64,000 nucleotides of DNA from an uncultured Nitrospiraceae bacterium (GTDB lineage Bacteria > Nitrospirota > Thermodesulfovibrionia > Thermodesulfovibrionales > Dissulfurispiraceae). Shown here in pieces: positions 2,022-63,247 of the stretch. A program made the translations under genes and the position numbers. Under the pieces are notes generated by a model. The model was not told the DNA's origin, did no database searches, and saw only the letters and a list, made by a program, of their open reading frames with translations. Within the stretch, counting starts at the first letter, position 1. Each line of letters begins with the position of its first letter. The stretch covers positions 544,001 through 608,000 of the forward strand of contig CAVPIW010000005.1 of assembly GCA_963705105.1 (NCBI GenBank). The letters are read 5' to 3'.

Positions 2022-2219
2022 TTAACCTTATCCTGCAACAAAGCCTCCGGAAAGGCGGGGTGTATGTGCCGAAAACCTTTATGCGGCGACACCTCAATCG
2101 TCACACAAGACGATGTTTCAAGCCGATGTCAGGAAAATTGGACATCTTTTCCGACACTGTCACTCACACTCACACTGACACTGTTTTCAGACCCCTTCGC
2201 CCCGCCTTTCTATGCACAG
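2022..2219 (+). repeat. Palindromic element family A, copy 1 (alpha-left + CACTGA-hexamer module)
   Basis: TTAACCTTATCCTGCAA..CCGGAAAGGCGGGG ... CGCCCCGCCTTTC-TATGCA; between convergent genes. Confidence 0.9.
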
Positions 2220-4742
2220 TTAGCGTCTCTTTGTTTGTCTCGTCGGAGGGGCATTCCAGGGATCGTCGGGCCAGGGATGCTTGGGATATCGCCCCTTCAG
2301 TTCCTTCCTGACATCCTGGTACCCGCCGTTCCAGAACCCCCTGAGGTCCTGCGTCACCTGGACGGGTCTCCGGGCCGGGGAGAGGAGATGGAGAAGCACC
2401 TTGACCCGTCCGCCGGCGACGGTCGGCGTGTCACCGAGGCCGAACATCTCCTGGAGCTTGACGGCGAGCACGGGGATGTCTCCCGCCGCATAATCGAGCT
2501 GCACGCGGTGGCCGCTCGGTACGACGATCGCCGAGGGTGCGCGCTCGTCAAGGAGCCGCTGTTGCCGCCAGGTAAGCTTTTCCCATAGTGCCGGGAGGAG
2601 TTCAATCGATGCAATGTCCCTCATGCTGCGGATACCGGTGAGCCTGGAAAGGATCCATTCCTCAGGTGCTGACGCAAGGCGGTCATCGGACAGATCGGGC
2701 CATTTCTCCTCCGGGAAGACCCGCCTCATGAGAGCGACTCTGCCCTGGAACTGACGGGCCTCTCTCGTGAAATGCAGCAGCGCCGATGGATCGGAACGGA
2801 TTGCATCGCACAGGAGAGGTGTCGCCTCGTCGTCACCGGGATCGAAGTTCTTCGACGAAAGGGTGACGGCGCCCAGATGCTCCTCAATGGTCGCGATGAT
2901 TCTTTTTTCCTTTTTGTCCACCCTGACCTGTTTCAACGTCCCGATGCGCCCTGCACATTCACGACGGATATTGTCGGCGGAAACGGGCGCGGCTATATGG
3001 ACAACACCATCACCGCCCTCGCCGATGTCGGCGGAGACAGCAACGATATAGGGGCTCTCTCTCGGTCCGCCCGTCGAAGGCAGGCGGACACCGCGGCCCG
3101 AGACGAGAACGAACCGTCCTTCGCCGCGCAACTGGGCGATCCTGTCGGGGTAGGCCGCCAACAGGAGGGTCGAAATGACATCCTCATCAGGCTCCTCCGT
3201 CGTGGATATTCCCCGTGGCCCGTGAACAAGCCTGCCGAGATGCTGCGCAATCCTGTCCGCGTTCCGGAGGGCCCAGGGATCGGCCCCGTGCAGCCGCACT
3301 CCCCGGCGCCAATCCTGCAGCATCTCCACCCTTTCAGTCATGCCTTCGGGATGCCCGCGCAAACTCTTATCGAAGGAAGATCCTCTGCGGGCGACATCGC
3401 GCTCCGAGAGCAGGGCGGCAAGGTCCGCACCGAGCCGCGGCCTGTCCATGTCACGGGCCCTCAGCATCAGTTTCGAGAGTCGGGGGTGCACGGGCAGACG
3501 GGCCATAGCCTTGCCCAGAGGCGAGACATGACCGCTCCCGTCCAGGGCGCCGAGATCGATGAGGAGACGTTGAGCAGCCTCCCAGGCCGTTGCGGGAGGA
3601 CAGTCGAGCCACGAGAGCCTGGAGGGATCCCGGACTCCCCAGACGGCCAGTTCAAGCGCCACCGGCGACAGGTCCGACACGAGGATCTCCGGCGGGGCAA
3701 AGGGGATCATCGAGCGAAAGGTGTGAGGGCTGTAGAGGCGGAAGCAGATGCCCGGCCCGAGCCGTCCGGCTCTTCCCTTGCGCTGCTCCGCCGAAGCCCT
3801 CGAAACGGGGATAGTAACGAGACGATTCATGCCCGTTGAAGGATCGAAGTGGAGTCTCCGTGTGAGACCGCTGTCAATAACGGTCCTGATGCCTTCGATG
3901 GTGAGACTCGTCTCCGCAATGTTTGTGGCGAGGACGATCTTGCGCGTTGCCAGCGGTACGATTGCCCGTTCCTGCTCCTCGAAAGGCAGATCCCCGTACA
4001 ATGGGTGGACCGTTATGCCGCCGCCTCCGCCTTTCACCACCGGGCCGAGGGCGTCGCAGCAGGCGCGGATCTCCCGGGCTCCCGGCAGGAAGACGAGGAC
4101 GTCACCGGGCTGCTCCCGCAAAGCCCTGATGATCGCGCCGCATACCTTTTCCGTGAGCGGCCTGTCCCGGTTGTCCGAGATGTAACACTCATCGACGGGG
4201 AAGGGCTTTCCCTCCGACCTGATGACCGGGGCTTCAGCGAGAAGCTTTGCAATGGGGCCGCTGTCGAGAGTTGCCGACATGACGAGGATCTTCAAATCCT
4301 CCCGCAGGCCCCGGTGGACGTCGAGGCAGAGTGCGAGAGCAAGGTCCGCATGGAGGCTGCGCTCATGGAATTCATCGAAGATGACCATGGCGACGTCCTC
4401 CATCGCCGGGTCGGACTGGATGCGCCTCGTGAGAATGCCCTCCGTGACGACTTCGACGCGCGTTCCCGCTGACACCTTCCTGTCGAATCGGATCGTGTAC
4501 CCGATCGTCAGTCCCACCCGTTCATCCAACAGACGGGCCATCCACCGGGCCGAAGAAACGGCCGCGATCCTGCGGGGCTGGAGCATGACGATCCGTTTTC
4601 CCGCCGGGATGAGGTCGAGCAGGGCGAGTGGCACCCGTGTCGTCTTGCCCGCCCCGGGCGGCGCCTGCAGGACGACGGAAGACCGGGCACGAAGGGTCTG
4701 TATCAGCTCCGGCAGGATGGCATCGACGGGACAGGGTGTCAC
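2220..4742 (-). CDS. hrpB: ATP-dependent helicase HrpB
   Basis: APPGAGKTT, DEFHER, MSATL, QRKGRAGR, C-terminal GRYPKHPWPDDP. Confidence 0.96.
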   Translation of the reverse strand: MTPCPVDAILPELIQTLRARSSVVLQAPPGAGKTTRVPLALLDLIPAGKRIVMLQPRRIAAVSSARWMARLLDERVGLTIGYTIRFDRKVSAGTRVEVVTEGILTRRIQSDPAMEDVAMVIFDEFHERSLHADLALALCLDVHRGLREDLKILVMSATLDSGPIAKLLAEAPVIRSEGKPFPVDECYISDNRDRPLTEKVCGAIIRALREQPGDVLVFLPGAREIRACCDALGPVVKGGGGGITVHPLYGDLPFEEQERAIVPLATRKIVLATNIAETSLTIEGIRTVIDSGLTRRLHFDPSTGMNRLVTIPVSRASAEQRKGRAGRLGPGICFRLYSPHTFRSMIPFAPPEILVSDLSPVALELAVWGVRDPSRLSWLDCPPATAWEAAQRLLIDLGALDGSGHVSPLGKAMARLPVHPRLSKLMLRARDMDRPRLGADLAALLSERDVARRGSSFDKSLRGHPEGMTERVEMLQDWRRGVRLHGADPWALRNADRIAQHLGRLVHGPRGISTTEEPDEDVISTLLLAAYPDRIAQLRGEGRFVLVSGRGVRLPSTGGPRESPYIVAVSADIGEGGDGVVHIAAPVSADNIRRECAGRIGTLKQVRVDKKEKRIIATIEEHLGAVTLSSKNFDPGDDEATPLLCDAIRSDPSALLHFTREARQFQGRVALMRRVFPEEKWPDLSDDRLASAPEEWILSRLTGIRSMRDIASIELLPALWEKLTWRQQRLLDERAPSAIVVPSGHRVQLDYAAGDIPVLAVKLQEMFGLGDTPTVAGGRVKVLLHLLSPARRPVQVTQDLRGFWNGGYQDVRKELKGRYPKHPWPDDPWNAPPTRQTKRR

Positions 4743-4787
4743 AGGGCTGTCCTCAGGGCTTGTGATTCATGCGAGGAGCGCAGGTCC

Positions 4788-5612
4788 TCAGAAGGGAAAG
4801 GATGTTATGAGACGCACGCCTGTCATGTTTGGGCCGAAGAGGAATCCCACCCCGAGTCTCTCTACCTTGAAACCGAGGACATCCCAGGGTTTCTTCGGAG
4901 CGGTCAGCAGGCCAATCTCCGTCTCCCCTTTCAGCGACACCGTCTCATTGCCGGGAAGCAGGAATTCGAGGTCGTTGAAATACCAGGTATAGATCGCGTG
5001 CATGCCGACCCTGATTGACTGATCCGAATCGATGGTCCAGGGGCTGATCCACTCAACGCCTATTCCAAAAGAGGACAGGGTATCGGCATTTCCTTTGTCA
5101 TTGCGGGCGCCTGAAAAAATGAGCGATCCGCCGAGCGTCATGTCGGACTGCTCGACGTTCAGATGATAGCGGCTCCTGACGCCGATGACTCCGAAGGCCG
5201 CCGTTCCCCCGTTCCGGACTTCCCATCCCGCCCCGATGTTGAAAAAGGGAGTGACCATCCAGGAGGGGGACAGCGGCATCTCCACCTCCACCCCGGGTGC
5301 GACGGCGATCAACGCGACCCGTTCATAGAAGGGATCATCGTCGCCCACCGAGCCGAAGCCGACGGTGACGGGGAAGAGGAGCTTTATTCCCCAATACTGA
5401 TCGGTGGCCTCCTGAAGGCGGAATGAAAAGGGTATGCGGAGAACGGCCACTTCAGCGCTGTCGACTTTGTAATAACCTGTTCCAAAGGCCGTCGAGAAAT
5501 ACCAGTTCAGATTGAATTCCGAGTCTTCAGCCGGGGAAGGAGAAGTCGTCAGGTGCAGCAGGCATAAAACGCAGAGTGCGATGAGGAAAAGCCGGAGCGC
5601 GATAGAACCCAT
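4788..5612 (-). CDS. Putative outer-membrane beta-barrel protein (start could be 5675)
   Basis: Signal peptide, alternating beta-strand pattern, C-terminal Phe. Confidence 0.6.
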   Translation of the reverse strand: MGSIALRLFLIALCVLCLLHLTTSPSPAEDSEFNLNWYFSTAFGTGYYKVDSAEVAVLRIPFSFRLQEATDQYWGIKLLFPVTVGFGSVGDDDPFYERVALIAVAPGVEVEMPLSPSWMVTPFFNIGAGWEVRNGGTAAFGVIGVRSRYHLNVEQSDMTLGGSLIFSGARNDKGNADTLSSFGIGVEWISPWTIDSDQSIRVGMHAIYTWYFNDLEFLLPGNETVSLKGETEIGLLTAPKKPWDVLGFKVERLGVGFLFGPNMTGVRLITSFPF

Positions 5613-5712
5613 ATGTCTGCGGTCCTGTGAACAGTCCGGAGGCCTGCGCGGCCGTCTTGTTCCGTTCATAGACATCTGCACAATTATATCATACTTCGCC
5701 GGTATCCAAAAT

Positions 5713-5756
5713 AACGTTATCCTTGCATTAGACCCCCGGAAAGGTGAGGCGAATGC
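5713..5756 (+). repeat. Family A left-end fragment
   Basis: AACGTTATCCTTGCATT..CCGGAAAGGTGAGGCGAATGC. Confidence 0.7.
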
Positions 5757-5816
5757 AATGAAGCAGTAAATGTTAGAGAGCAGGCAAAGGCAGGAACCAG
5801 ACAAAAAACGCGCCGA

Positions 5817-6070
5817 CGGGAAGGCTGATGTGGCGAAAAGCCTTTCTGCTAAGCTTCCTTATCGTTGCATACGCCATCCGGAAAGGTGAGGTGAATGCTT
5901 CGAAAAGCCTCGGTGCTGCGACACCTTTGCCGTCCCATAGAGACCATTTCAGGCCGACGGTTGATGACACAAAGGATGAAATCCTGAGAAACCAATAATA
6001 AACAATCATGCTCGCTATCAGCGAGGCTTTGAGGAGCTTTGCCCCGCCTTTCCATGCAACCGATTAGGGT
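5817..6070 (+). repeat. Family A copy 2 (delta-like module at 5817-5853 + full beta element at 5857-6070)
   Basis: CCTTATCGTTGCAT ... GCCCCGCCTTTCCATGCAACCGATTAGGGT; internal GATGACACAAAGGATGAAATCCTGAGA. Confidence 0.9.
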
Positions 6071-6127
6071 AATCAGAAATATCCGTGGTAAAATAGCGGA
6101 ACCATTCTTTTGAACAGGAGGATAACG

Positions 6128-7114: not shown

Positions 7115-7147
7115 GGGTCTCCCGCGCGTTCACCTCATCGTTTCGTG

Positions 7148-7302
7148 CCCCGGAAATGCGGGGCTGGGGTGAATGCGTCGAAAACCTTGCTGGGGCGACA
7201 CCTGTATCAAAACGAGAGATGAACTGATACGCCAATGGTCGATTCTACATGACACAATGAGTGGATTCCTGTAGGGGGCCATAGCCCGAAGGGCCGACAT
7301 TA
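7148..7302 (+). repeat. Family A copy 3 (partial alpha, ends in degenerate GTAG-type REP)
   Basis: GAAAACCTTGCTGGGGCGACACCTGTATCAAAACGAGAGATGAAC...GACACAATGAGTGGATTCCTGTAG, matching copies 12 and 17. Confidence 0.85.
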
Positions 7303-7370
7303 ATGACTTTCCTGATCGTTTCTCTTAGAAATTCCCGTCGGGACGTCTGTTTTTCCTGCCCGTCGTTCAT
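7245..7370 (-). CDS. 41-aa peptide with twin-arginine-like motif (MNDGQEKQTSRREFLRETIRKVI...); candidate RiPP precursor, 3' half derived from repeat
   Basis: Translated by hand; AGGAGG 5 nt before ATG; SRREFL; directly downstream of PqqD/kinase pair. Confidence 0.6.
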   Translation of the reverse strand: MNDGQEKQTSRREFLRETIRKVINVGPSGYGPLQESTHCVM

Positions 7371-7431
7371 GCCTGCCTCCTATGAGCCTGCACTGTCTAA
7401 ATCTACTCTTGCAGGTTCTCAGTCTATGACA

Positions 7432-7447
7432 TGCATAAATTGTGCCA
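7432..7447 (-). promoter_or_regulatory. Sigma54-type -24/-12 promoter for the peptide gene
   Basis: TGGCAC-AATTT-ATGCA, GG-N10-GC spacing. Confidence 0.55.
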
Positions 7448-8640: not shown

Positions 8641-8895
8641 CGTGTCATCACCCTTGTCCATAATGACTCTTCGTGAACCTTTGAATCTGGAGATCGACAC
8701 CGTATTTTAGCAGAAAATTTTCCCCCCGTCAGTCACCGGCGTCCAAAATGATCTGATACGAGGATAGGTGTACCCGTAAAGTTTACTTCGGAAATCAACC
8801 GCTATCCTCGTTTTCAAGGTTTTACTGCAAGCCGTTTTGGACACGAGTGCCCGTCAGTCGCCCACATGGATTGCCGCGATGATATCGTCATACTG

Positions 8896-25668: not shown

Positions 25669-25719
25669 AACCATTGTAGTTGCATAGAAAGGCGGGGCGT
25701 GTAGTACAACGATAAGGAT
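25669..25719 (-). repeat. Family A ends-only mini-element (~50 bp)
   Basis: AACCATTGTAGTTGCATAGAAAGGCGGGGCGTGTAGTACAACGATAAGG. Confidence 0.75.
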
Positions 25720-27255: not shown

Positions 27256-27451
27256 AAACCTTACTCTCGCCATCGGACCTCCGGAAAGGCAGGGCGTATG
27301 CGCCGACAAGCCTCGGTGCTGCGAAACCTTTGCCTTCCCATGAAGATTATATCGGGCCGACGGCTGACAAAATCTCTTTCTGGCACTCACACTGTCACTG
27401 ATACTGTTTTTCAGAGCGCTTCGCCCTGCCTTTTCATACAACTGGGGGTAA
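27256..27451 (+). repeat. Family A copy 6 (beta-left + hexamer module)
   Basis: AAAGGCAGGGCG ... CGCCCTGCCTTT arms with matched substitution. Confidence 0.9.
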
Positions 27452-27537
27452 AGATCGTGTTATTGGAGTCCAACATGATGTTCCGCAGCGTCTTGCTGCA
27501 AACCGCTTTGGTTACGAGTGAGTTCAGGCGGTATTTC

Positions 27538-27564
27538 GGGCCGTTCGGGGAACGGCCCCTGCAG
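27538..27564 (-). repeat. GTAG-type REP-like palindrome
   Basis: GGGCCGTTCGGGGAACGGCCC; near-identical unit at 63093-63119. Confidence 0.6.
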
Positions 27565-30912: not shown

Positions 30913-31132
30913 ACCCCTGTAGTTGTATAAAAAGGCGGGGCGAAGCGCCTCAAATCCTTGCTGAAGGCGACGATACGCCCCCTCGTTAGCTTTGTGTTTC
31001 AGGATTCCACTCTTTGTGTCATCGACCATTGGCGTATAGTTCGTCTGCCCTTTCGATACAGGTGTCGCCGCAGCAAGGTATTCGACGCATACACCCCGCC
31101 TTTACCGGCATGTATTGCTCAACGATAAGGTC
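30913..31132 (-). repeat. Family A copy 7 (alpha, full length)
   Basis: Reverse complement closely matches copy 12 (51856-52084). Confidence 0.92.
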
Positions 31133-31277
31133 AATTCAATCAGCTATCAAAGAGCGTGTGGCCCCCGGCAGGCCGGAAGCCCCGACAATCCCATTTCCTC
31201 ATTTACCCTGCCAAAGAGAGGTCTCGCAAGCCGAGTCGTGAGATTGTCGCAAGCTGTGTCGCAAGATTGTCGCAAGT

Positions 31278-32327
31278 TCAACCAGTCCCCTTCATCCGGT
31301 AGACGAGCTTGTTGGTCGATCCCTCCGAAACCAACAGCCCCATATCCACCATGGCCTTCAGGTCGCGCTGCAGAGAGCGGCGGTTGACCTCGGGAAAGTA
31401 GTGCTCGAAATCCTGGATGGTCAGACTGCCGTGTTCCAGAATGTGGCCGAGGACTTTGGTCTGGCGCTCCGAAAGTCTGTGCTCTTTGATGAGCACATCC
31501 CGGCGGATGGCCTGCTCTCCGCGCTCCCTGACTTCGGCAAGCTGCGTGGTCAGCCCCTCGACGAAATATTCCAGCCAGCCGGTCATGTCCATGCGGTGCT
31601 CGCGGACGCTCTGGATAGCCCGATAGAATGCCGGCCGGTCTCGGTCGTAGTATTCGCTGATCGCAAACAGCCGCTTGAAGTCGTACCCGGCCCGGTAGAG
31701 GCACAAGGTCGAGAGCAGCCGGGAAGTCCGGCCGTTGCCATCCAGAAACGGGTGGATATGCACGAGCTGGAACTGAGAGATGCCGCTCACCAGAACCGGG
31801 TGAACCTCCGTCTCCTGGTTTAGCCAGTCCACCAGATCCGCCATCATGATCGGCACATCATGCGCCGGGGGCGGAGTGTAGACCGTCTCGCCGGTGGTCG
31901 AGTTGACCACGTAGTTCTGGATTTTCCGATACTCGCCGGGAGCAGCTGCTCCGCCACGCACGCCCTCGACGAGCCGCTTGTGAATTTCCCGAACGAGCCC
32001 CTCCGTGACCGGACCGCCGTCCTCGAGATACTCGGAAACGAACTCAAAGGCTTTCTTGTAGTTCAGCAGTTCCCGCACATCATCGGGATCGGCCTCGGGG
32101 ACCGGCTTGCCTTCCAGGAGTTGCTCGGCCTGGTCCAAGGTCAGACGTGTTCCCTCGATGTGAGTGGTGTGATGGGCTTCAAGGATCAGCGCTCGACGTC
32201 CCATCTCCCTCACCCAGGCCTCGGATAAAGTCGCGGCCTCCAAGAACCCCCGGGCCCGCTCGATGCGGGTCAGCCCGGCGGTGACCCGGTTGGTGATGGT
32301 GAATGCGGGGTGAAAGCCTTTGGTCAT
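31278..32327 (-). CDS. Fic-family protein with C-terminal HTH
   Basis: [12 protein letters not shown]ic motif; HTTHIEG inhibitory-type helix. Confidence 0.93.
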
Positions 32328-33097
32328 TTGCCACCGCCTCTCCCCGGCGAATTCTTCAGTAGGACCAGGTCATCATCCAGCCCGTGACGGAGAATGTCGA
32401 GCCTGGATGACGCAGCCACAAGGCTTTCGGCGTGAATTGGCTTGATCCGGAACGGGAAGAGGCTCGGGCTATCGATCAAGTCTTTGCGCGGGGCCGAGCC
32501 GTTGGCGCGGGCATGAAGGGATGCTTCGGCCAGCCAGGCTATCAGTCGGGAATCATCAACGGCCAGCGTCGTCCCGGCGGTATAAATTCCCTTTGTGCCG
32601 GTCTCCTGAAGCACGCCCCAATCCAGGTACGAACGCAGTATGCGCCGGGCTGCTCGGGAAACAGTCTCCCGCTCGCCGTATTGCTCGCGGACCCGGCGCT
32701 GGACATGAGCCGCGGCAGCGGAGCCCTGAAGCCTCAGAAGACGGCCGGTCTGGGTGGCTACACCCGACCAGAACGGGTAAACGGCCATGACCATCCCCCA
32801 GTGGATAGCCAGATGATCGCGTCGAGGAACACGTTTGAGGAGCTCCAGTCCTTCGACGCGCAACGACTCGAGTTCGCTCGGAACCTTCAGCCACGTCTTG
32901 AGGAGAATCGTGATGATCTTCTCGCGATTGCCGCGCACGGCCTGGCCGCCGACGGACACCTTGTCCTTCAGCAGCTCCTGCAAGGCATCGTTGACCGCAG
33001 CCTTGTCATTCCCTGCCAGGATCAGGTTGGCCGTCTGCTCAAGCCATTCCAGGCGCACCCGCTGACTGAATCCGATCTGGTCGGTCCGTCTGGTCAT
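32324..33097 (-). CDS. BrxA-like BREX-3 accessory protein
   Basis: Position directly after pglZ in type-3 order, ATGA coupling; identity mostly from synteny. Confidence 0.6.
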
Positions 33098-34554
33098 TCG
33101 CCCCTCCTCTCAATTTGGATCAGAGGGACGATGAGTTCCTCTACTGAAACGCCGCCGTGGCTAACGGTGCGCTGTTTTTCTTGGACAAACGCCTGCCGAG
33201 CAGGGGCCAGCAGGGCGAGGTAGTCCTCCGGGAGACCAACGGGGCCCCATTCCAGCGCGGCGGGAAAACGTTCCTTCACCTTGCCGCGAAGGGCCGCGTC
33301 GGGATAGATGCGGACTCGTTCACCGCGCAGGTCCGCCACAGCTCCTTCAGACGGACGACCGCAACCTGTCGCCTCGATGTTGCCGTGATCGGAGGTCAGG
33401 AAGACCCGGAACCCATGATCCAGGAGCAGATCAAGGAGGGCGCTGAGATACGGCTGCTTGGCCCACTGGCCCACTTGGTTGTGCATCCCGGCGGTGCCCA
33501 TTTCCATCCCGTGCATGATTTTGTCTACCTTGTCCACGACCAGCCCGGCGACCCTTGCCTTGGGATGAGAAAGCGCTTCGGAAACGGTATCCAGACTGCC
33601 ATCGCCCAGCCCCTTGATGTAGACGACATCGTTTGGCATAAGGCCCTGATCCGCCCAGAATTGCGCCCAGAGAGAGGGTTCCTTGTCCGTGGTCTGGATG
33701 CTATTAGGAAAAAAGATGGGAGCCTTGCCGGCGAAGGTTGCTTGGCGCGAGACGGAGGTGAGCGAAGGAATCCAGGCAAAGACCGCCTGCTCCCGGAATC
33801 GCAGCCCAGGCTGTTTTGAGGCAAGTGCTTCGCGGACTACCAGCCATTGGTCCAAGGCAAGGCCGTCCACCACGATCAGTGCGATCTTGGCGTTGCGGTC
33901 TTCTCCCATTTGGCGGGCAAGAAATCGCGGGAGGTGATGCAACATGACCGGAGGCACCGGTGGCAGATTAACCAGCCCGGCATACCGCTTGAAGAGCCAG
34001 GCTGCGAAACCGGCATCCACCTGTGCCTGCAAGTTCTTGATGCGTTCATCCGTCGGTTCGGAAATCGCTTCGGCCTGATCGTTCGCCAGCAGGATCGTCT
34101 CCGCCCATCCGCGGGCAAAGTGGAACCAGTCCCTGTGCTTCGCGTCCTCGGCCGGAATGGATGCCTCCAGACTTTTTCCCGTAGATGTGTCTTTATCCAT
34201 AAGGCCTTCGGCTGCATGAGAGAAAGGCGCATGACCCAAATCATGCAACAAACTTGACAGTCGAACTAAAACCCTATCACGCCCTAATCCGTCATAATTG
34301 AAATCCAACTCCGATTTTAGAAAGTCACCTCGCCTTACCCGTATATGATCGAACATACGTGTAGCAACCTGCATCACTCCAAGAGAATGTTCAAAACGGT
34401 TATGCATCGCCGCCGGGTAAACCATATCCGTGAAACCAAGTTGCCGGATGCGTCGTAGGCGTTGGAAAACTGGATGATTTACGATATCTCGTTCCCACTC
34501 GTTCAAAGTAATGAAGCCGTGAATAGGGTCCCTGATTTCAGTGATTTTACCCAT
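33094..34554 (-). CDS. pglZ: Chimeric HD-domain phosphohydrolase N-terminus (~128 aa) fused to C-terminal part of BREX-3 PglZ
   Basis: RDPIHG, FQRLRRIRQLG, RFEHSLG, LLHDLGHAPFSH then VVDGL, SLTSVSR, SDHGN; GC shift at ~34170. Confidence 0.8.
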   Translation of the reverse strand: MGKITEIRDPIHGFITLNEWERDIVNHPVFQRLRRIRQLGFTDMVYPAAMHNRFEHSLGVMQVATRMFDHIRVRRGDFLKSELDFNYDGLGRDRVLVRLSSLLHDLGHAPFSHAAEGLMDKDTSTGKSLEASIPAEDAKHRDWFHFARGWAETILLANDQAEAISEPTDERIKNLQAQVDAGFAAWLFKRYAGLVNLPPVPPVMLHHLPRFLARQMGEDRNAKIALIVVDGLALDQWLVVREALASKQPGLRFREQAVFAWIPSLTSVSRQATFAGKAPIFFPNSIQTTDKEPSLWAQFWADQGLMPNDVVYIKGLGDGSLDTVSEALSHPKARVAGLVVDKVDKIMHGMEMGTAGMHNQVGQWAKQPYLSALLDLLLDHGFRVFLTSDHGNIEATGCGRPSEGAVADLRGERVRIYPDAALRGKVKERFPAALEWGPVGLPEDYLALLAPARQAFVQEKQRTVSHGGVSVEELIVPLIQIERRGE

Positions 34555-34702
34555 GATTGCTACTCCAAAACGAAAATCTCTCCGCATGAAACAACTTGGT
34601 CGCTCGTCCACTGACCAAGTTCGTTTATGGGTATACCCGACTTGTACAGTGACTTGGTCAGTTCTGCATGGAAAATAGCCATTGATGATCCCGTTAATGC
34701 CG

Positions 34703-35818
34703 TCATGATCTCGTTTCCCGGACCTGTTCCTCGATAAAACGCTGCATCTCCTCCTTCTTCGGCAGTTCGAGTTGGTATTTGGAAACGAAAAGGCCGTTGT
34801 CCATGCCGGCCAGCGCATATTCCACAAGGGTTTGGTCGCGCTGCGTGCACAGAAGGATGCCTATGGGCGGATTGTCCCCCTCCGACATCATGTTTTTTTT
34901 GTACCAGCTCACATAGGTATTGAGCTGGCCGATATTTTCGTGGCTGAACCGTTCGAGTTTTAGCTCCACCAGTACGTGGCACTTGAGTAGTCGGTGGTAA
35001 AAGACAAGGTCCACGAAGTTATGCATATCTCCGATCAATATCCGCTTTTGGCGGGCCTCAAAACAGAACCCGTGCCCCAGCTCCAAGAGGAAATCTTGCA
35101 GTTTATCAAGGAGCTGATCCTCCAGATGCGACTCGCTCATCACTTCCCTTGGCTTCAGTCCAAGGAATTCGAACACATAGGGGTCGCGAATTGCCAGCTT
35201 GGGATCGGCAGCTTCGGCTCCTTTTTGCACCAGTTCAGTCAGTTTTTTCTTGTCCTTTGAAAGTCCGGATCGTTCGTAGTAAAGGCTGGCGATCTGGCGC
35301 TTCAGTTCACGCACCGACCAGTTGCCCCGGAGGCACTCGAGTTCATAAAATGCCCGTTTCAGGTCGTCATCGAGATCGACGAGCAATTCCAAATGGCTGT
35401 AGGAAAACCGTTGGATGATGGTATCCGGCGGGGTGCGCAATTGTGGGGACGCCGTCCCCACTTTCTCAAGGGCCTTTGTTCCAGCAGGCAACAGCTTTTT
35501 CAATTGTGCGGACAGTGTCCCCACAATCTCAGGGTAAAGGCGATAGAAACGCAGATAACGATACAGCTGACGACGGTTGCAGTTACTTACCTTCAGTTCT
35601 GTAAGGCATTTGGCAAGTTCAGCGAGGAGATTGTCGCCGTATTGGGCCCGGTCGGAACCCCGCAACTCGTACTCAGCGATGTAGCAGCCGATTAGCCAGT
35701 TACGCAGCGTCAGGCTCAGGTTAACCGCCCGACCGGCTTGCGCCGCCAACTCTTCATGAGCCTGCTGAATAGCGCCGGTCAGCTTTTCAAAGCTTATTTC
35801 GTGTTCATTCGTGTCCAT
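34703..35818 (-). CDS. DUF1016/YhcG PD-(D/E)xK nuclease-domain protein
   Basis: WSVRELKRQI, RDPYVFEFLGL, LLELGHGFCF, DLVFYH, VELK. Confidence 0.92.
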   Translation of the reverse strand: MDTNEHEISFEKLTGAIQQAHEELAAQAGRAVNLSLTLRNWLIGCYIAEYELRGSDRAQYGDNLLAELAKCLTELKVSNCNRRQLYRYLRFYRLYPEIVGTLSAQLKKLLPAGTKALEKVGTASPQLRTPPDTIIQRFSYSHLELLVDLDDDLKRAFYELECLRGNWSVRELKRQIASLYYERSGLSKDKKKLTELVQKGAEAADPKLAIRDPYVFEFLGLKPREVMSESHLEDQLLDKLQDFLLELGHGFCFEARQKRILIGDMHNFVDLVFYHRLLKCHVLVELKLERFSHENIGQLNTYVSWYKKNMMSEGDNPPIGILLCTQRDQTLVEYALAGMDNGLFVSKYQLELPKKEEMQRFIEEQVRETRS

Positions 35819-35827
35819 TCGTGGTTC

Positions 35828-37291
<1,464 letters not shown>

Positions 37292-37292
<1 letters not shown>

Positions 37293-37495
37293 TAGCGATC
37301 TCCTCCTGAACCGGGCTCGTTGACACCGGCTCCGCCAGACTTCACCCACTCGTCCACTTCGTCTTTGCGGAATTTCCAAAGGCGGCCCATCCGGTGCGCA
37401 GGCATCTGCTTTTCAGAAATCCACTTGTAGACCGTATCCCGCTTGATGCCGAGATAGGCCGCAATCTCATCCACAGAAAGCCATCGATCTTTCAT
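37292..37495 (-). CDS. Excisionase-family helix-turn-helix protein
   Basis: WLSVDEIAAYLG..RDTVYKW...MPAHRMGRLWKF; TAATG-coupled to brxF. Confidence 0.9.
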
Positions 37496-38008: not shown

Positions 38009-38084
38009 TGGCTCCTGGGGAGGGATTCGAACCCCCGACCAAGTGGTTAACAGCCACCCGCTCTGCCAGCTGAGCTACCCAGGA
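38009..38084 (-). tRNA. tRNA-Asn(GTT)
   Basis: Cloverleaf TCCTGGG/CCCAGGA, anticodon GTT, CCA encoded. Confidence 0.97.
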
Positions 38085-38823: not shown

Positions 38824-39043
38824 TTAACCTTATCGTTGCAATAGGACATCCGGAAAGGCGGGGCGAAGATGCCGAGAAGCCTTGGTGCTGCGAAACCTTT
38901 GCCTTCCCATACGGATCATGTCAGGCTGACGGTTGATGACACAAAGGGTGGAATCCCGAATGTCCAATTTCAAATGATCATGCTCGCTATCAGCAAGGCC
39001 TTGAGGCACTTTGTCCCGCCTTTTGATGCAACTGGAAGGTTAA
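38824..39043 (+). repeat. Family A copy 8 (beta, full length, TTAA at both ends)
   Basis: TTAACCTTATCGTTGCA ... TGCAACTGGAAGGTTAA. Confidence 0.92.
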
Positions 39044-43226: not shown

Positions 43227-43228
43227 TC

Positions 43229-47232: not shown

Positions 47233-47548
47233 CTCCCTTTCTGTTTCATGAAAAGGCGGGGCGAAGCGCTCTGAAAAACAGTGACAGTGTGAGTGACAGT
47301 GTCACTGTCGGTGTCACTGCCGCTGCCTGCGGGAAGGCAGATATGGTTCAGAGCCTTTCCGTCCGAGTGTTCGTGGCCTGGTTATGACCGTCGAATGTTT
47401 TAATGACTCAATGACTTTATGGTGGCGCATACGCCCCGCCTTTCCAGGGAGTGTATTGCAACGATGAGGTAACATTGCCATCGGGAAGGCGAATGACACC
47501 GGTAAGGTTAAGGATTTTTCCCGACACTGACACTCACACTGTTTGCAG
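47233..47548 (-). repeat. Family A copy 9 (47233-47472; hexamer + delta modules) plus adjacent fragment
   Basis: AAAAGGCGGGGCGAAGCGCTCTGAAAAACAGTG ... CGCATACGCCCCGCCTTTCC..TTGCAACGATGAGGT. Confidence 0.9.
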
Positions 47549-47559
47549 AATGATAAGAT

Positions 47560-48611: not shown

Positions 48612-48873
48612 TTACCTCAGCGTTCTATACGCCCTCCGGGAAGGCCGATATGGTTCAAAGCCTTTCCAATGCGATGAAGAGACATCTTCAGGTGTTCGGC
48701 GTCTGGTGCCTGACGGGCTTTTGTCATCGAATAACACGGCAAAGGGTAGTTTTCACCACATCAGCCTTCCCGTCCCGGTGTTCGTGGCCTTGTTCCGAAT
48801 GACGTCTGACGACTGCCGATCGACGACGACAACTGATGTGTTGACGCATTTCTATCCCGCCTTTGCCGAAGTG
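48612..48873. repeat. Family A copy 10 (degenerate; two opposed delta modules)
   Basis: GGGAAGGCCGATATGGTTCAAAGCCTTTCCAATGCGATG and TTTTCACCACATCAGCCTTCCCG, ending CCCGCCTTT. Confidence 0.8.
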
Positions 48874-51572: not shown

Positions 51573-51665
51573 AGACTAATATAGCATATCATCCTTGTCC
51601 AAAATATCTTGCAGCCGGACTTTGAAAACGAGGATGGGGTGTGGTTTCTGAAGCATAATTCACGG

Positions 51666-51857
51666 TTGCCTTGCACGAAAAGACGGTGCAAAACGCTCCG
51701 AAAAACAGTGTCAGTGTCAGTGTCAGTAAAAGGTTCACTTTTCTTCAGACGTCTGCCTGAAATGGTCTGTACGGGAAGGCAGAGGTTTCGCAGCGCCGAT
51801 GCTTTTCGGCTCATACGCCCCGTTTTTCCTGAGATCTCATTGCAGTGATACGGGTTT
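51666..51857 (-). repeat. Family A copy 11 (beta-left + hexamer module)
   Basis: CAGTGTCAGTGTCAGTGTCAGT ... GGGAAGGCAGAGGTTTCGCAGC..CATACGCCCCG. Confidence 0.85.
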
Positions 51858-52084
51858 ACCTTATCGTTGCAATGCGCGCCCGGGAAAGGCGGGGCGTATG
51901 CGCCGAAAACCTTGCTGCGGCGACACCTGTATCAAAACGAAAGATGAACTATACGCTAATGGTCGATGACACAAAGAGTGAAATCCTGAAACACGAAGAT
52001 GACGAGGCGTATCGTCGCCTTCAGCAAGGCTTTGAGGCGTTTCGCCCCGCCTTTCCTGATATCTCATGGCGGTGATAAGGGTTT
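51856..52084 (+). repeat. Family A copy 12 (alpha, full length), back-to-back with copy 11
   Basis: ACCTTATCGTTGCAAT..GAAAGGCGGGGCG ... CGCCCCGCCTTTC. Confidence 0.93.
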
Positions 52085-52208
52085 ATTATGCGAAGAAATC
52101 ATGCCCCATCCTCGTGTCACATTATTTTTGAATTTCAATGATAGCGTCTGAACGAAACGCAGGAATGCAGAGATGAGACTCCCCTGATGCCCTTTGGTAT
52201 AATAAGAC

Positions 52209-54030: not shown

Positions 54031-54239
54031 AAACCTTATCGCTGCAATACACTTCCGGGAAAGGCGGGGCGTATGCGCTCTGAAAAAAGTGTCAGTGACA
54101 GTGTGAGTGTCAGGAAGAGGCGCGCATTTCAAACATCGCTTTGAACCGTTGTCTCTTGTGATGGTGCAGGTGTCGCCGCACCAAGGTTTTCGGCGCATAC
54201 GTCCCGCCTTTCGGTCGGGCGTTATTACAACGGCAAGGC
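54031..54239 (-). repeat. Family A copy 13 (two left-type ends; inverted twin of copy 14 core)
   Basis: 54059-54212 is the near-identical reverse complement of 57909-58061. Confidence 0.92.
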
Positions 54240-56582: not shown

Positions 56583-56595
56583 AGGCGCGTCTCCC

Positions 56596-57883: not shown

Positions 57884-58186
57884 ACCTGATCGTTGCATAT
57901 GATCTCCGGAAAGGCGGGGTGTATGCGCCGAAAACCTTGCTGCGGCGACACCTGTACCATCACAAAAGACACCGGTTTAAAGCGATGTTTGAAATGCGCG
58001 CCTCTTCCTCACACTCACACTGTCACTGGCACTTTTTTCAGAGCGCTTTGCCCCGCCTTTCGGCGCATCTGCCAAAATGGTCCTCATCATCGCATTGGAA
58101 AGGCTTTGAACCATATCTGCCTTTCCGGAGGCAACGTCGCTATCAATAAGGCTTCGAGGCATTTCGTCCCGCCTTCTCATGTAACC
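57882..58186 (+). repeat. Family A copy 14 (composite: alpha-left + hexamer + delta + beta-right)
   Basis: Begins within rmuC stop (TAAACCTGATCGTTGCA); two CCCGCCTT arms. Confidence 0.92.
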
Positions 58187-58198
58187 GCCAATTAAAGA

Positions 58199-58358
58199 GG
58201 GCGGCTCAGTCAGATTGAAGAGCCGCCCTGTCGACTATGGCAGCGAGTCCTCCGGGGGGTCGTATGCACGCAAGAAATACCCTTCAATGAGGGGAAGATG
58301 ATCGTGTGTCCTTCCCGAGCCCTCCCAGCACTGCGACAGACTACCACAGGTTTCTTTC
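58199..58358 (-). ncRNA. Candidate structured ncRNA (6S-like rod?) with terminator hairpin at 58199-58229
   Basis: Non-repeat, non-coding; CTGTGGTAG pairs with CTGCCATAG, CTGGGAGGG with CCCCCCGG; AGGGCGGCTC/GAGCCGCCCT stem. Confidence 0.35.
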
Positions 58359-58477
58359 AGTCATAACGGCGTCCCCGCCCCGTGATGATCCCGACCGCAC
58401 CTCGTCCCATTCACCGGGATCCGGACTGCGGGGCCGCGCTTACCTATGTTATCGTCACTGCCCCCGGAAACTTGATT

Positions 58478-58916
58478 TTAACTCCTCGTTGCATACTCGT
58501 TCGGGAAAGGTGGGAAAAGGCGCCACTCACTCCGGCGGGAAGGCTGATGTGGTGAAAAGCCTATCCGCGAAGATACCTTGTTCATCCCCAGATCACCTTT
58601 TTCCGTAGTCCATTGATAGGAAGAGCCCGTAAGGCAACAGGCGCTGAACACCCCGATATGCACACCCATAGGCCCGACCGAATGGCGCGGTGAAGCGCCG
58701 AAAAGCATCGGTGCTGCGAAACCGCTGCCGTCCCGCTGAGTGTATGTAAGCAAAACTGTTGATGATACAGAGGATGAACTCTTCAACAAACAATAATAAA
58801 TAATCATGCTCGCTATCAGCGAGGCGTTGAGGCGCTTTGCCCCGCCTTTCGGCGCATCTGCCAAAATGGTCCTCATCATCGCATTGGAAAGGCTTTGAAC
58901 CATATCTGCCTTCCCG
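58478..58916 (+). repeat. Family A copy 15 (composite, degenerate 5' half, beta + delta)
   Basis: 58832-58912 identical to 58043-58123. Confidence 0.88.
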
Positions 58917-58931
58917 TCAGAACATGGTTCG

Positions 58932-60188
58932 TCAGCGCATTCCCTCTCCGATGAGGGACAACAGGGACGAGAAAGGGATCTCGCCCTGCTCACCCTTTTT
59001 CAGATGCTTCCATTTGATCATGCCCGCCTTGAGCTCTTCGTCTCCGATGATCAGGGCATAGGCGGCGCCGAGACGGTCCGCCTTTCGCAGTTGGCTCTTG
59101 AGGGACGCGCCGCCATAGTTCGGCTCGACGCGGTGGCCCGCTTTTCTGAGCGTTTCGGCGATCCGCAGGCCCTCGATGCCGGCATCCTCCCCGAGGGTCG
59201 CAACAAATACTGCCGGGCCCGGTCCGTCGATACACGTTTTCTCCTTCAGCAGCGCCGTGATCCTTTCCATGCCCATGGCAAAACCGATGGCCGGCGTGGG
59301 TGACCCGCCGAATTCCCCGACGAGACCGTCGTAGCGTCCGCCGGCAGAGACGGCCTTCTGGGCGCCGAGATGTTCGCTCGTCACCTCGAAGGTCGTTCTC
59401 GTGTAGTAGTCAAGACCCCTGACGAGGTTGGGATTGACGACGTGGGTGATCCCCAGGAGTCTCAACCGCCTCAGGACATCGTCGAAGTGGCATCGGCAGT
59501 CCGGGCAGAGGTGGTCCTGGATGGACGGCGCCCCTTTCCTGAGTTCGACGCACCTGTCGACCTTGCAGTCGAGGATCCTCAGGGGATTGGTCCCGTACCG
59601 GCGCTGGCAGTCGGGGCAGAGCTGGGGCAACAGGTCCCGGAAATGGCCGAGAAGGGCCTGCTTGAAGGCGGGCCTGCACTCTTCGCAGCCGATCGAGTTG
59701 ATCTCGAAGGAAATCCCCTCGATCCCGATCCGTTCGAGCAGGCTCTGCAGCATCGTAATCATCTCGGCATCGAGAGACGCCTCGGCAACGCCGAACGCCT
59801 CAGCCCCGATCTGGTAGAACTGCCTGAACCGTCCCTTTTGAGGGCGTTCGTACCGGAACATCGGTCCGGTGTAATAAAACTTCTGGGGAGAGGGGAGGGT
59901 GTGGAGGTGATGTTCGATATAGCAGCGCACGGCCGGCGCCGTGCCCTCAGGCCGCAGGGTGATGCTCCTGCCCGCCCTGTCGAGGAAGGTGTACATCTCC
60001 TTTTCGACGATATCCGTCGTCTCGCCGATGCTGCGCGTGAAGAGATCCGTCGATTCCACGACGGGAAGACGGATCTCCTGATATCCATAGAGGGAGAAGA
60101 CCTCGCGGGCCGCCGACTCGACGTGCTGCCAGATCGCAATCTCCGGGGGCAGGATGTCCTGCATCCCCTTCGGGGCGCTAAACTTCAC
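58932..60188 (-). CDS. hisS: Histidine-tRNA ligase
   Basis: LRPEGTA, FRYERPQKGRFRQF, LVRGLDYY, GGRYD. Confidence 0.98.
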   Translation of the reverse strand: MKFSAPKGMQDILPPEIAIWQHVESAAREVFSLYGYQEIRLPVVESTDLFTRSIGETTDIVEKEMYTFLDRAGRSITLRPEGTAPAVRCYIEHHLHTLPSPQKFYYTGPMFRYERPQKGRFRQFYQIGAEAFGVAEASLDAEMITMLQSLLERIGIEGISFEINSIGCEECRPAFKQALLGHFRDLLPQLCPDCQRRYGTNPLRILDCKVDRCVELRKGAPSIQDHLCPDCRCHFDDVLRRLRLLGITHVVNPNLVRGLDYYTRTTFEVTSEHLGAQKAVSAGGRYDGLVGEFGGSPTPAIGFAMGMERITALLKEKTCIDGPGPAVFVATLGEDAGIEGLRIAETLRKAGHRVEPNYGGASLKSQLRKADRLGAAYALIIGDEELKAGMIKWKHLKKGEQGEIPFSSLLSLIGEGMR

Positions 60189-60654
60189 CGGAGTCTTCCC
60201 CTTCTCTCACCTTGTCGAACTCGAGCATCCTCATGTGGCCCTCGATCAGCCTCTTCAGCTCTTCCTTGAAATGCTGCCTGATCCCCTTCAGGTCGACGAT
60301 ATCCTCATGGATTTTCACGACCTTCTCCTGGGCGCCCTTGATCAGGGTGTCGGCGTTCAACTCCGCCTCTCTTATGATGAGCTCGGCTTCCTTCTTTGCA
60401 TTCCCCTTGTACTCCTCGACCATCTGCTGCGCCGTCAGGAGCGTCTCGCGGAGAGTACTCTCCATCTGCCTGTATTCTTTGAGCTGTTCGTCGGTCCTGC
60501 TGATCTGCTCCTTCAGCGTGGCGTTTTCCCTGAGGATCTCTTCCATTTCCTCCCTGACGAGTTCAAGGAACGAGTAAACCTCTTCGACGTCAAAGCCGCG
60601 GAAAAGCCTCACGGGAAACTGCTTCTGCTGGATGTCGAGCGGCGTGATCCTCAT
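60178..60654 (-). CDS. divIVA: DivIVA-domain protein
   Basis: ITPLDIQQKQF..FRGFDVEEV, coiled coil. Confidence 0.92.
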   Translation of the reverse strand: MRITPLDIQQKQFPVRLFRGFDVEEVYSFLELVREEMEEILRENATLKEQISRTDEQLKEYRQMESTLRETLLTAQQMVEEYKGNAKKEAELIIREAELNADTLIKGAQEKVVKIHEDIVDLKGIRQHFKEELKRLIEGHMRMLEFDKVREGEDSGEV

Positions 60655-60965
60655 ATGATCCCACCTCCTTTCATTTTGTACCCTAGTTCGACAAGGGAAT
60701 GAATGATGAATTTTTGAACAAATATAATAGCAAGAATGACGACGAGAGGTGAAATATCGATGGGACCGAGACGGTGGCCGATCACTCGCCTGATGGGACG
60801 GAAAACGGGCTCCGTCACGGCATGCAGAAAGCGGACGATCGGGTTGTAAGGATCAGGGCTCACCCAGCTGATGATAGCCGAGATGATGACGATCCACGTG
60901 TATATGTCGAGCCCGATGTCGAGAACCCTGGCGACGGCGATAATGAAATTAGCAAAAATGAACAC
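60651..60965 (-). CDS. yggT: YggT-family membrane protein
   Basis: SWVSPDPYNP, TEP...IRR, IDISP. Confidence 0.93.
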   Translation of the reverse strand: MFIFANFIIAVARVLDIGLDIYTWIVIISAIISWVSPDPYNPIVRFLHAVTEPVFRPIRRVIGHRLGPIDISPLVVILAIIFVQKFIIHSLVELGYKMKGGGII

Positions 60966-61754
60966 CTAATCCCTCCTTCCCAATTCCTCTGCCCGTCTGA
61001 GTGCAGCGCCGAGGGCGCTCTTCACACATTCACGGAACCCCAGCTCCCCGAAGACGCGGAGGCCCGCCGCCGTCGTTCCCCCCGGCGAGGTGACCATCTC
61101 CCGGAGCCGCGCCGGGGGCATCCCGTTGTCGAGGAGTCTTGCCGTCCCGAGAGTGGTCTGTACGGCCAGTTCGCGCGCCGCGTCTTCATCGAGTCCCATG
61201 GAGACGCCGCTTTCGATGAGGGCTTCGACAAAGAGAGCGATAAAGGCGGGCCCGCTTCCCGAGAGGGCCGTGACGGCGTTCTGATATTTCTCGGGCAACG
61301 TGAGGACCTTACCGACAGACATGAATATGTCGCGGACAATGGCAATATCCCTGTCCGAAAAACACTCGCAGAGTGACAGGACAGACATCCCCTCCTGGAC
61401 GATGGCGGGCGTGTTCGGCATGACCCGCACGAGTTTCCTGGTCCTGACCCTGGAGGAGAGATACGAGAGGGGCACTCCGGCCGCTATGGAGACGACGGTC
61501 TGATCCTCCCTGACGGCGCCGCCGATCTCGTCAAGGACGGCAGGGAGCATCTGGGGTTTGACGGCAAGGATGATCACCTGCGAGGTGTCGACGACCTCCC
61601 TGTTCGACGATGTGACCGTGATGCCGTATGCCGACCGGAGGCGTTCCCTCTTATCCGTTTCGGGTTCCGAGACGATGATCGCGCGGGAACCGCGTGATGT
61701 CATGCCCCGGATGAGCGCCTCCGCCATGTTGCCGCCGCCGATAAAACCGATCAT
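60966..61754 (-). CDS. proC: Pyrroline-5-carboxylate reductase
   Basis: IGFIGGGNM, AVKPQ, RVMPNTP, SGSGPA, VTSPGGTT. Confidence 0.97.
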   Translation of the reverse strand: MIGFIGGGNMAEALIRGMTSRGSRAIIVSEPETDKRERLRSAYGITVTSSNREVVDTSQVIILAVKPQMLPAVLDEIGGAVREDQTVVSIAAGVPLSYLSSRVRTRKLVRVMPNTPAIVQEGMSVLSLCECFSDRDIAIVRDIFMSVGKVLTLPEKYQNAVTALSGSGPAFIALFVEALIESGVSMGLDEDAARELAVQTTLGTARLLDNGMPPARLREMVTSPGGTTAAGLRVFGELGFRECVKSALGAALRRAEELGRRD

Positions 61755-61780
61755 ACCATCTCCTTTCGTTATCATAAGTC

Positions 61781-62222
61781 TACCCTACTGCTGGAACACG
61801 CCCTCCGGAAAAGCGGGACGTAGATGCCACAGAAACAGCGGATAATAGACAGTAGTCAGTAGTCACAGGCACTGACCACCCTGATATGTACATATCGCTT
61901 CATACACTCTCCGGAAAGGCTGGGTGAACGCGCCGAAAAGCATCGGTGCTGCGACACCGCTGCCGTCCCATGCAGAGCATGCAAGGGTGACTGTTGATGA
62001 TACAAAGGATGAAAACTTTAAAATCCAATAATAAACAATCATTCTCGCTATCAGCGAGGCTTTGAGGCGCTTCGCCCTGCCTTTCCACATATCTGCCGAA
62101 ATGTCTCATCATCGCATTGGAAAGGCTTTGAACCATATCTGCCTTCCCGCAGGCATCGGCAGTGACACTGACACTGTCACTGTTTTTCAGAGCGCTTCGC
62201 CCTGCCTTTCCATGCAGGGTAT
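61781..62222 (+). repeat. Family A copy 16 (left fragment + beta + delta + hexamer composite) between yggS and proC
   Basis: Two CGCCCTGCCTTTCC arms; modules match copies 2, 9, 15. Confidence 0.92.
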
Positions 62223-62226
62223 AGCC

Positions 62227-62922
62227 TCACGCCCTCTCGCCGAATATGGCTGTGCCGATCCGGACGAGAGTCGCTCCTTCCTCGACGGCGACGGTGAAGT
62301 CATGAGACATGCCCATGGACAGCTCGGGGAGCGGGAATCCCCGTTTTTCTGCATCGTCCCTCAGCTCCCTGAGTTTCCGGAAATAGGGCCTCGTCTCCTC
62401 GGCCTCCAGATACGGGGGCATGGTCATGAGGCCGAGAGGATGGAGATTCCGCAGGGACGATATCCCTTCAAGAAGCGGAATGAGTCCCTCCACGGGGACG
62501 CCGTGCTTCGTCTCCTCTTCGGAGAGCTTCACCTGGACGAGGACCTTCTGCACCTTGCCGAGCCTTTCGGCGTGATGATCGAGCACGGTTGCGAGCTCAA
62601 GGGAGTCAACGGTATGGATCATGTCGAAGAGAGAAACGGCGTGCTTCGCCTTGTTTTTCTGAAGATGGCCGATCAGGTGCCACTCGATCGTGCTCCTCAG
62701 GGGACCGAGCTCTGCCGATGTCACCTTGTCCTGTGCCTCCTGCACCCTGTTTTCCCCGAACACCCTGAGACCGGCATGATGGGCCTCCAGAACACGAGGG
62801 GCCTGTATGGTTTTCGTGACTGCCACGAGCCGGACTTCCGCCGGGTCTCTTCCGGCACGCATGGCGGCATGGCTCATCTGTCTGTATATCCCGGATGCCC
62901 TCTCCAGGATCGTATCTGCCAT
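62227..62922 (-). CDS. yggS: YggS pyridoxal phosphate homeostasis protein
   Basis: LVAVTKT, FGENRVQE, WHLIGHLQKNK, LSMGMS, VRIGTAIFG. Confidence 0.97.
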   Translation of the reverse strand: MADTILERASGIYRQMSHAAMRAGRDPAEVRLVAVTKTIQAPRVLEAHHAGLRVFGENRVQEAQDKVTSAELGPLRSTIEWHLIGHLQKNKAKHAVSLFDMIHTVDSLELATVLDHHAERLGKVQKVLVQVKLSEEETKHGVPVEGLIPLLEGISSLRNLHPLGLMTMPPYLEAEETRPYFRKLRELRDDAEKRGFPLPELSMGMSHDFTVAVEEGATLVRIGTAIFGERA

Positions 62923-62968
62923 ACAAAACCTCTTATGTCCTGCTCATCGTATTGTCAAGACGATGGTA

Positions 62969-63247
62969 TACCTCTCGGTTGCGTGAAGAGGCGGGGCGAA
63001 TGCGCTCTGAAATACAGTGTCAGTGACAGTGTGTGTGTCAGCAAAAAGTTCACCTTTTTCAGCCGTCGGCCTGAAATAGCTTCATCGATGTCGGGCCGTT
63101 CGGGGAACGGCTCCTACAGTAATCCACTCTTTGTGTCAAAGACCACCGGTGTATAGTTCGTCTGCCCTTTTGATACAGGTGTCGGCGCAGCAAGGTTTTC
63201 GGCGCATACACCCCGCCTTTCCGGAACGCGTATGCAACGATACCGTG
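62969..63247 (-). repeat. Family A copy 17 (alpha + embedded GTAG REP + hexamer module)
   Basis: GAGGCGGGGCGAATGCGCTCTGAAA ... CGCATACACCCCGCCTTTCCGG..TGCAACGATAC. Confidence 0.9.

Follow-up and report, generated by a model that had tools for sequence, protein, structure and literature searches.

A miniature mobile element of an uncultured Nitrospiraceae bacterium with a one-strand hairpin core, likely moved in trans by an IS1380-family transposase

Copies, ends and target sites of family A

The window analyzed here is a 64,000-nucleotide stretch of contig CAVPIW010000005.1 from an uncultured Nitrospiraceae bacterium of the order Thermodesulfovibrionales (assembly GCA_963705105.1, below G000; 4.23 Mb in 19 contigs). 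Repeat finding revealed many direct and inverted repeat families in it, among them a palindromic intergenic element, family A. A search with a library of 120 family A copies, each verified by its target-site duplication (TSD), recovered 19 loci in the window, spanning 2024 to 63243 and covering 4,128 bp or 6.45%, close to the roughly 20 copies, 4 kb and 6-7% of a first-pass annotation made from the letters alone. Genome-wide, the same search found 802 loci, or 160,459 bp (3.8%). Family A is a prokaryotic MITE (miniature inverted-repeat transposable element), showing each MITE feature examined; we consider it a ~212-bp MITE that is likely moved in trans by an IS1380-family transposase and whose one-strand hairpin core likely persists by aiding the element's spread.

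The reference copy, a 212-bp a2/b2 copy at 38828..39039 (+ strand), lies between infC and a histidine kinase gene and is missing from related strains. It consists of terminal repeats, an outer stem, an inner stem and a loop of ~88 nt, and is flanked by the target duplication TTAA on its left (38824..38827, +) and right (39040..39043, +). The true ends of the element read CCTT..GTTGCA and TGCAAC..AAGG, with 13-bp terminal inverted repeats of the form CCTT-NNN-GTTGCA on both sides. The long-type end, CCTTATCGTTGCA-N11/12-GAAAGGCGGGGCG, has 467 matches genome-wide and the short-type end, CCTT-NNN-GTTGCA-N2-GAAAGGCGGGGCG, has 398; the exact end pattern occurs 225 times in this genome, compared with 0 for a reversed control. 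With the element taken from CCTT to AAGG, an exact 4-bp duplication was found at 120 of 250 long-short pairs (150-450 bp), against a shuffle mean of 13.9 and maximum of 25, and the 5-bp alternatives gave 5/250 and 1/250. The target consensus is TNNA, most commonly TAAA (22), TTAA (21), TTTA (16) and TGAA (9). The outer and inner inverted repeats described in the first-pass annotation both exist; since the 4-bp duplication fits the CCTT..AAGG boundaries, however, the AA and TT with which its outer repeat began belong to duplicated target DNA. A 2-bp duplication within T-NN-A was dropped, as the flanking T and A covary and thus make up 4 bp. A 2.3-kb end pair with matching flanks is a tRNA-ligase gene between two copies.

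The TSD-verified copies are non-coding and 160-421 bp long (mode, 212); 61 of the 120 measure 211-213 bp, in agreement with an earlier estimate of 200-230 bp for full copies, and a second class lies near 194-200 bp. Copies are nearly all intergenic, with 3 of 249 overlapping a gene called by a simple gene caller, and their orientation to host transcription is about random (86 same, 81 opposite).

Comparison of empty and filled sites, a check proposed at the outset, was possible at the reference copy. In run X7, a contig with 9 differences from the window over 800 bases (~99% identity) passes straight from 38824 to 39041; it lacks 216 bases, the 212 of the element plus 4, and keeps a single TTAA. 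The reference copy is also missing in runs X2 and X4, so that it is missing in 3/3 DNA runs. Contigs of X4 and X7 run across the site at 48628..48813 without the copy, as does a contig of X4 at 54034..54238. Individual copies are therefore missing in some strains, and their presence varies. Because parts of the stretch are present in 20 public runs from 15 studies, family A is not an assembly artifact. The RNA run X20 yielded only short diverged pieces as contigs and is uninformative on expression.

Copies are modular. Both inner-stem arms (a1/b or a2/b, mostly 211-213 bp) are present in ~70 of the 120 verified copies, an a1 arm with the hexamer-repeat module c in 32, and an e/d hairpin in ~8. 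Genome-wide, e and d arms number 131 and 137, with a spacing of 130 in 75/110. Judging from the match of a cross-genus model of the core (R2) at 48637-48772, the e/d hairpin belongs to a second lineage of that core. Right-end haplotypes recur in otherwise different clusters and some copies have long-type ends on both sides; these mosaics likely arose by recombination between the hundreds of copies.

Much of this variety is seen within the window. A full a1/b1 copy lies at 30915..31130 (-), and a full a2/b2 copy at 5857-6069 follows an e-arm fragment (together 5717..6069, +). An a1/b1 copy at 23733..23927 (-) is without its short-type end, while the far end of a recombinant a1/b1 copy at 51859..52080 (+) is a long-type end; the latter stands back to back with an a2 plus module c copy at 51671..51853 (-). 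Module c is likewise joined to an a1 arm at 2026..2217 (+; right end worn) and in a 274-bp copy at 62971..63245 (-), to an a2 arm at 27259..27449 (+) and to a d arm at 47236..47469 (-). The second core lineage, the e/d hairpin, occupies 48628..48813 (-), and the mosaic at 54034..54238 (no strand assigned) has a long-type end on both sides. Composites are found at 57885..58187 (+; a1, module c, d arm, partial b arm), 58512..58921 (+; e arm, a2/b2 core, d arm) and 61798..62217 (+; a2/b core, d arm, module c). The remainder are a fragment with a1 arm and loop at 7133..7307 (+), a 78-bp internally deleted copy retaining both ends and module c at 11901..11978 (+), a 46-bp remnant made up of the two ends at 25672..25717 (-), and, with no strand assigned, a 32-bp internal-module fragment at 27533..27564 and a module c fragment at 47523..47552. 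Short arrays of a 7-bp repeat, noted by eye, adjoin element copies at 31215-31280 and 63290-63325.

As the first-pass annotation had noted, two regions are free of copies: no locus lies between 11978 and 23733, around the rRNA operon (15600-20833), or between 31131 and 38822. The latter region contains BREX-3 genes (31278-37379) with BrxF and PglZ over cut-off, a weak BrxC match and a Fic-like gene, and a tRNA at 38012 nearby. A second, unrelated dispersed repeat family is present at 8774-8843 and 51596-51665, with loose ends at 52128. Elsewhere in the genome, contigs C1 and C3 differ in GC content (45.5% and 67.2%, vs ~57% elsewhere), carry no element copies and are possibly plasmid or foreign; long (TC)n runs occur, and an IS1634-like element has inserted in the module c hexamer repeats of a family A copy on C10 near 242400 (L016).

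An Rfam scan of the window gave rRNA and tRNA only; five family A copies gave 0 matches and 20 relative loci gave four at chance level (E 0.48-1.6), so the family, unrecognized at first reading, is still without a match there. In its general features it resembles Correia/NEMIS, ERIC, RUP, Nezha, Chunjie and QMITE, which as described in the parts of two reviews at hand are short and non-coding, share terminal inverted repeats with insertion sequences (IS) and duplicate their target (PMC10969869, PMC3184786). The likeness extends to empty and filled sites, intergenic position, a stable predicted fold and IS similarity limited to the ends, whereas the ends and sequence of family A differ from those of the named elements (PMC10969869, PMC3184786). 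Family A is thus a type II MITE in the sense used in the available sections of PMC10969869. It is ordinary in kind; the unusual and new part is a conserved one-strand core with changing ends.

Ends shared with IS1380 elements

No Y1_Tnp, DDE_Tnp_1 or IS1380 match was found in the window, where other transposase families were not searched; to this extent the window is free of transposase genes, as first reported. The genome holds four Y1_Tnp genes and 15 DDE_Tnp_1 matches, all with ends unlike those of family A. The 15 DDE_Tnp_1 matches (IS1634-, IS4- and IS1182-like by eye) were rejected as mobilizers on account of these different ends.

IS1380-family elements (NF033539, PF13701) have short inverted repeats starting with CC, duplicate 4-5 bp at AT-rich targets, and the ends of family A, with their CC-starting short inverted repeats and 4-bp duplication, are of this type. 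For end comparison, 30 IS1380 loci were fetched from the order. Four (L033, L035, L036 and L037; proteins 60-82% identical) share MITE-like ends, CC(C/T)..GTTGCATAA, with termini CCTAAACGTTGCATAA, CCTTCCAGTTGCATAA, CCTTGTAGTTGCATAA, CCCTAACGTTGCATAA or CCCTATCGTTGCATAA. The short end of the MITE resembles their left end and the long end their right end, and all three proteins scanned among the four passed the NF033539 cut-off. Unlike these elements, family A encodes no IS1380 DDE transposase, and its core is missing from 38/38 IS1380 loci; it behaves as a dependent of IS1380 and is not an IS itself. The original description of a non-autonomous modular palindrome spread in trans is supported. 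The enzyme, left unidentified in that description, can now be assigned at the family level because the ends and the 4-bp duplication agree with those of IS1380 elements from this order: an IS1380-family transposase is very probably the mobilizer, as judged from sequences in other genomes of the order.

Published accounts of the family include IS1247, with 16/13-bp inverted repeats and 5-bp direct repeats, and TMos, in which a single IS1380 copy can mobilize adjacent DNA (both from the accessible part of PMC3281130). IS1380 serves only as an outgroup of piggyBac in the sections of PMC10813416 at hand and has 0 occurrences in the available text of either MITE review, where one core in several end types was likewise not seen (PMC10969869, PMC3184786).

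The hairpin core and its ends across the order

The consensus fold comprises 36 core pairs and 10 terminal pairs, which accords with the earlier statement that the arms pair over 40 or more bases. Two models of the core were searched, R1, built from 18 copies, and the cross-genus R2. R1 detected the core in 9/67 further genomes of the family, where length and ends are the same and, in some, 4-bp duplications are present. With R2 it was detected in 34/100 further genomes of the order, spread over 8/13 families, and in 1/63 genomes outside the order. By contrast, BLAST against 40 relatives gave two weak matches of 40-44 bp and one of 33 bp, in 2/40, and the exact end or arm patterns were found 0 times in viral contigs, in JGI metagenome contigs and in 300 genomes of the order, with 13 scattered, chance-like matches in a partial scan of GTDB contigs. 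The first-pass view of the element as lineage-specific thus holds for its sequence and fails for its structure, which is order-wide.

In 61 cores, an outer stem of ~18 bp of free sequence is followed by a tandem GA/GA mismatch and a middle stem of ~13 bp; inward of this lie a two-base 3' bulge (AT in 42/61) and a GCGAT/ATCGC stem of 5-6 bp, capped by a loop of 77-98 nt (87-88 nt in 23/61). In a 19-row alignment, both sides change in 22 of 42 pairs, a count reached in 0/500 shuffles, with slid controls at 9-13. Outer arms are 49% identical between groups and pair with their own partner at -30.3 kcal/mol versus -17.9 across groups, though the own partner beats every cross partner in only 11/19.

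The fold is also specific to one strand. Taking one core from each of 24 genomes, among which kin are not independent, we counted 51 G-U against 5 A-C appositions, and the tandem GA/GA is present in 14/24; deviations within this genome are 53 G-U versus 24 A-C. Copies in sense and antisense orientation share the G-U bias (19:11 and 19:8, respectively), and the strand that folds goes with the polarity of the core itself, not with that of host transcription, nor, as flipped frames reveal, with that of the IS ends. A strand bias relative to GC skew (170:124; P = 0.009) is weak, with noisy skew and neighboring copies, and was not used. Among the published elements found, bcr1 from the Bacillus cereus group comes closest in structure; in the part of PMC3184786 available it is likewise a mobile repeat with short direct repeats and fold-keeping compensatory changes. 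There, bcr1 has 5-bp repeats, a cruciform of two stem-loops and is transcribed, whereas family A forms a predicted rod of ~40 bp with a loop of ~88 nt (PMC3184786).

Four end types, T1 to T4, frame the core; three match distinct IS1380 elements and one frames both orientations. T1, the ends of this genome with their 4-bp duplication, shows exact duplications in several genomes, and it frames the core in the orientation seen here in G000, G004, G017, G019, G133, G295 and G304 and in flipped orientation in G052, G059, G115, G119 and one copy of G064. T2 ends (CCATAATCCGTAA; 209-211 bp; 5-6 bp duplications where intact) occur in G008, G021, G029 and G064. T3 ends (CCCAAAT(C/T)GAGCG; G075) resemble an end of IS1380 locus L051, and T4 ends (208-209 bp) resemble locus L208, with 12-15/16 positions on the left and 11-12/16 on the right, compared with ~8 for shuffles. 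Many other core matches have worn or unrecognized ends. In G104, an IS1380 element of the 5-bp-duplication type (L029:1004-2890) lies inside a 232-bp element with T1 ends, a TTAA duplication and a different interior.

Ends and cores do not sort together. The T1-framed cores of G019 and G295 are 77-81% identical to the closest T2-framed cores, and the G019 core is only 45-48% identical to the T1-framed cores of this genome. In a tree of 27 cores, chosen for recognizable ends from some 90 fetched matches, the end type changes 7 times (minimum, 4). Because similar cores carry different ends and the end type changes along this tree, the sequence comparisons indicate at least four changes of ends, with length and core retained. 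These changes probably came about either by capture between the ends of IS1380 subgroups or by drift in the direction of those of the subgroup then active. One T2-framed core (L138 in G029, family f6) sits within a group of family f1 cores, which hints at horizontal transfer. Among open-access papers, none was found that describes this element or a single core shared by several end types.

Persistence of the core

The preferred account can be set out in three steps. An IS1380-family transposase would cut and insert the element in trans, duplicating a 4-bp TNNA target. The core would gain new ends from whichever IS1380 subgroup is active. The fold of one strand, as a putative RNA or single-stranded DNA, would raise the rate of copying, and new insertions would land at random.

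Several observations weigh against this account. IS1380 models detected no IS1380 gene or remnant in the 19-contig assembly (best tblastn E value, 0.074), so that the helper is deduced from relatives. Among the four matching IS, only L035 has an exact 4-bp duplication, and this, AAAA, is uninformative. None of 88 loci carries a transposase with T2 ends, the nearest end being that of L044, and T4 is clear in only ~4 of 8 copies (G032, G066). In the core tree, a single group of forward-T1 cores is rejected only weakly (P = 0.039), and a single group of all T1 cores is not rejected (P = 0.34). G-U pairs score favorably in the covariance model, which may inflate the strand bias in relatives. Finally, 32 of the 120 TSD-verified copies lack the inner-stem 3' arm, which makes the inner stem dispensable for movement, and in such copies the unpaired a1 arm stays conserved (0.030 vs 0.021 deviations per site), which suggests that sequence matters as well as the fold.

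One alternative is that the element is useful to its host, the hairpin being kept after insertion for processing or stabilizing read-through mRNA, in the manner of RNase III, or for binding a chromosome-organizing protein. RNase III-type processing has been described for Correia elements. It is also reported for MITE transcripts in the available part of PMC10969869. Among 70 close independent pairs of copies, differences per site are 0.039 in the stem and 0.021 in the inner stem, compared with 0.079 in the loop and 0.18 at the ends, and terminal-branch rates agree; this slower change of both stems and the nearly exclusive intergenic location of copies fit such a role. The stem-loop gap, however, shrinks to 0.047 versus 0.066 when only columns invariant in young copies are used, being near nil for C, G and T, and what is left can arise from recombination among copies. 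The damage at the ends shows no correlation with internal divergence (rho, 0.02 and 0.13), so simple ageing does not explain most of it. By singleton counts, stem and loop could not be told apart: one set gave 0.37 vs 0.53, another gave 0.71 vs 0.52. Copies show no orientation preference, the G-U bias does not depend on sense, and strains live without individual copies. Host selection on inserted copies is thus weakly supported, and we regard a host function as unlikely.

Alternatively, family A may be a plain type II MITE in which the fold has no role and the arms serve as subterminal binding sites in double-stranded form, their likeness maintained by gene conversion or template switching. 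Conservation of the a1 arm without a partner suits this idea, as does the folding of whole copies, which is about equal on both strands (mean, -79.8 and -83.2 kcal/mol), and gene conversion yields compensatory-looking changes without selection. Yet conversion should erase asymmetries, and the 3' bulge, the GA/GA mismatch and the 51:5 excess of G-U persist across the order, which leaves this explanation improbable.

Strand-specific bulged hairpins are the type of substrate used by RAYT/HUH and integron-type enzymes, and a REPIN-like element moved as a folded single strand by such a tyrosine transposase or recombinase was therefore weighed. Like REP/REPIN sequences, family A is an abundant intergenic palindrome in a genome with RAYT-like genes, here the four Y1_Tnp genes, alongside 12 tyrosine recombinase matches. 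All four Y1 genes have other terminal repeats, unrelated to family A, and no family A end abuts them, so the suggestion of a RAYT gene flanked by the same termini is unsupported; clean 4-bp duplications, IS1380-like ends and the single-TTAA empty site fit DDE chemistry instead. This reading is largely refuted for insertion and, overall, very unlikely. The Y1 genes themselves (L001-L004, at C5:264943, C7:292773, C5:339860 and C6:957998) encode RAYT-like proteins of 221-323 aa, each gene closely enclosed by terminal inverted repeats of its own that begin with GGGG(T/A)CAG, with partial duplicates near L002.

Amplification by transcription and reverse transcription followed by transposase integration would account for one-strand folding, mosaics and the uncorrelated end damage, but is scarcely credible, as the sole reverse transcriptase in the genome is a stand-alone 512-aa protein, of defense type by eye, neither poly(A) tails nor a pattern of 5' truncation was noted, and both ends are usually complete. 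The gene for this protein (L294:1141-2679, C14) lies ~3 kb from a tyrosine recombinase.

For an IS1380-mobilized MITE, the simplest fit to the conservation of the core is selection on source copies. This selection may act on the fold of one defined strand, as putative RNA or single-stranded DNA, and not on service to neighboring genes, a view we hold tentatively and a little short of calling it probable. The hairpin is likely to last longer than the enzymes carrying it. Going further, the ~165-nt core could be a selfish structured module of RNA or single-stranded DNA. In this view it would have acquired ends from one IS1380 subgroup after another, either way round, and as a cofactor or enhancer would assist IS1380-type DDE transposition, a passenger outliving its carriers; we think this a long shot.

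The interiors of MITEs are usually regarded as padding between the ends that the transposase binds. In family A it is the interior that lasts, a fold with a fixed loop of ~88 nt kept in 8/13 families while the ends change. Within this genome, the element makes up 3.8% of the DNA, varies between strains and provides hundreds of recombination substrates. With this system one can ask directly whether a bacterial transposon of the DDE type needs a folded single strand, and how a MITE persists once its helper is lost.

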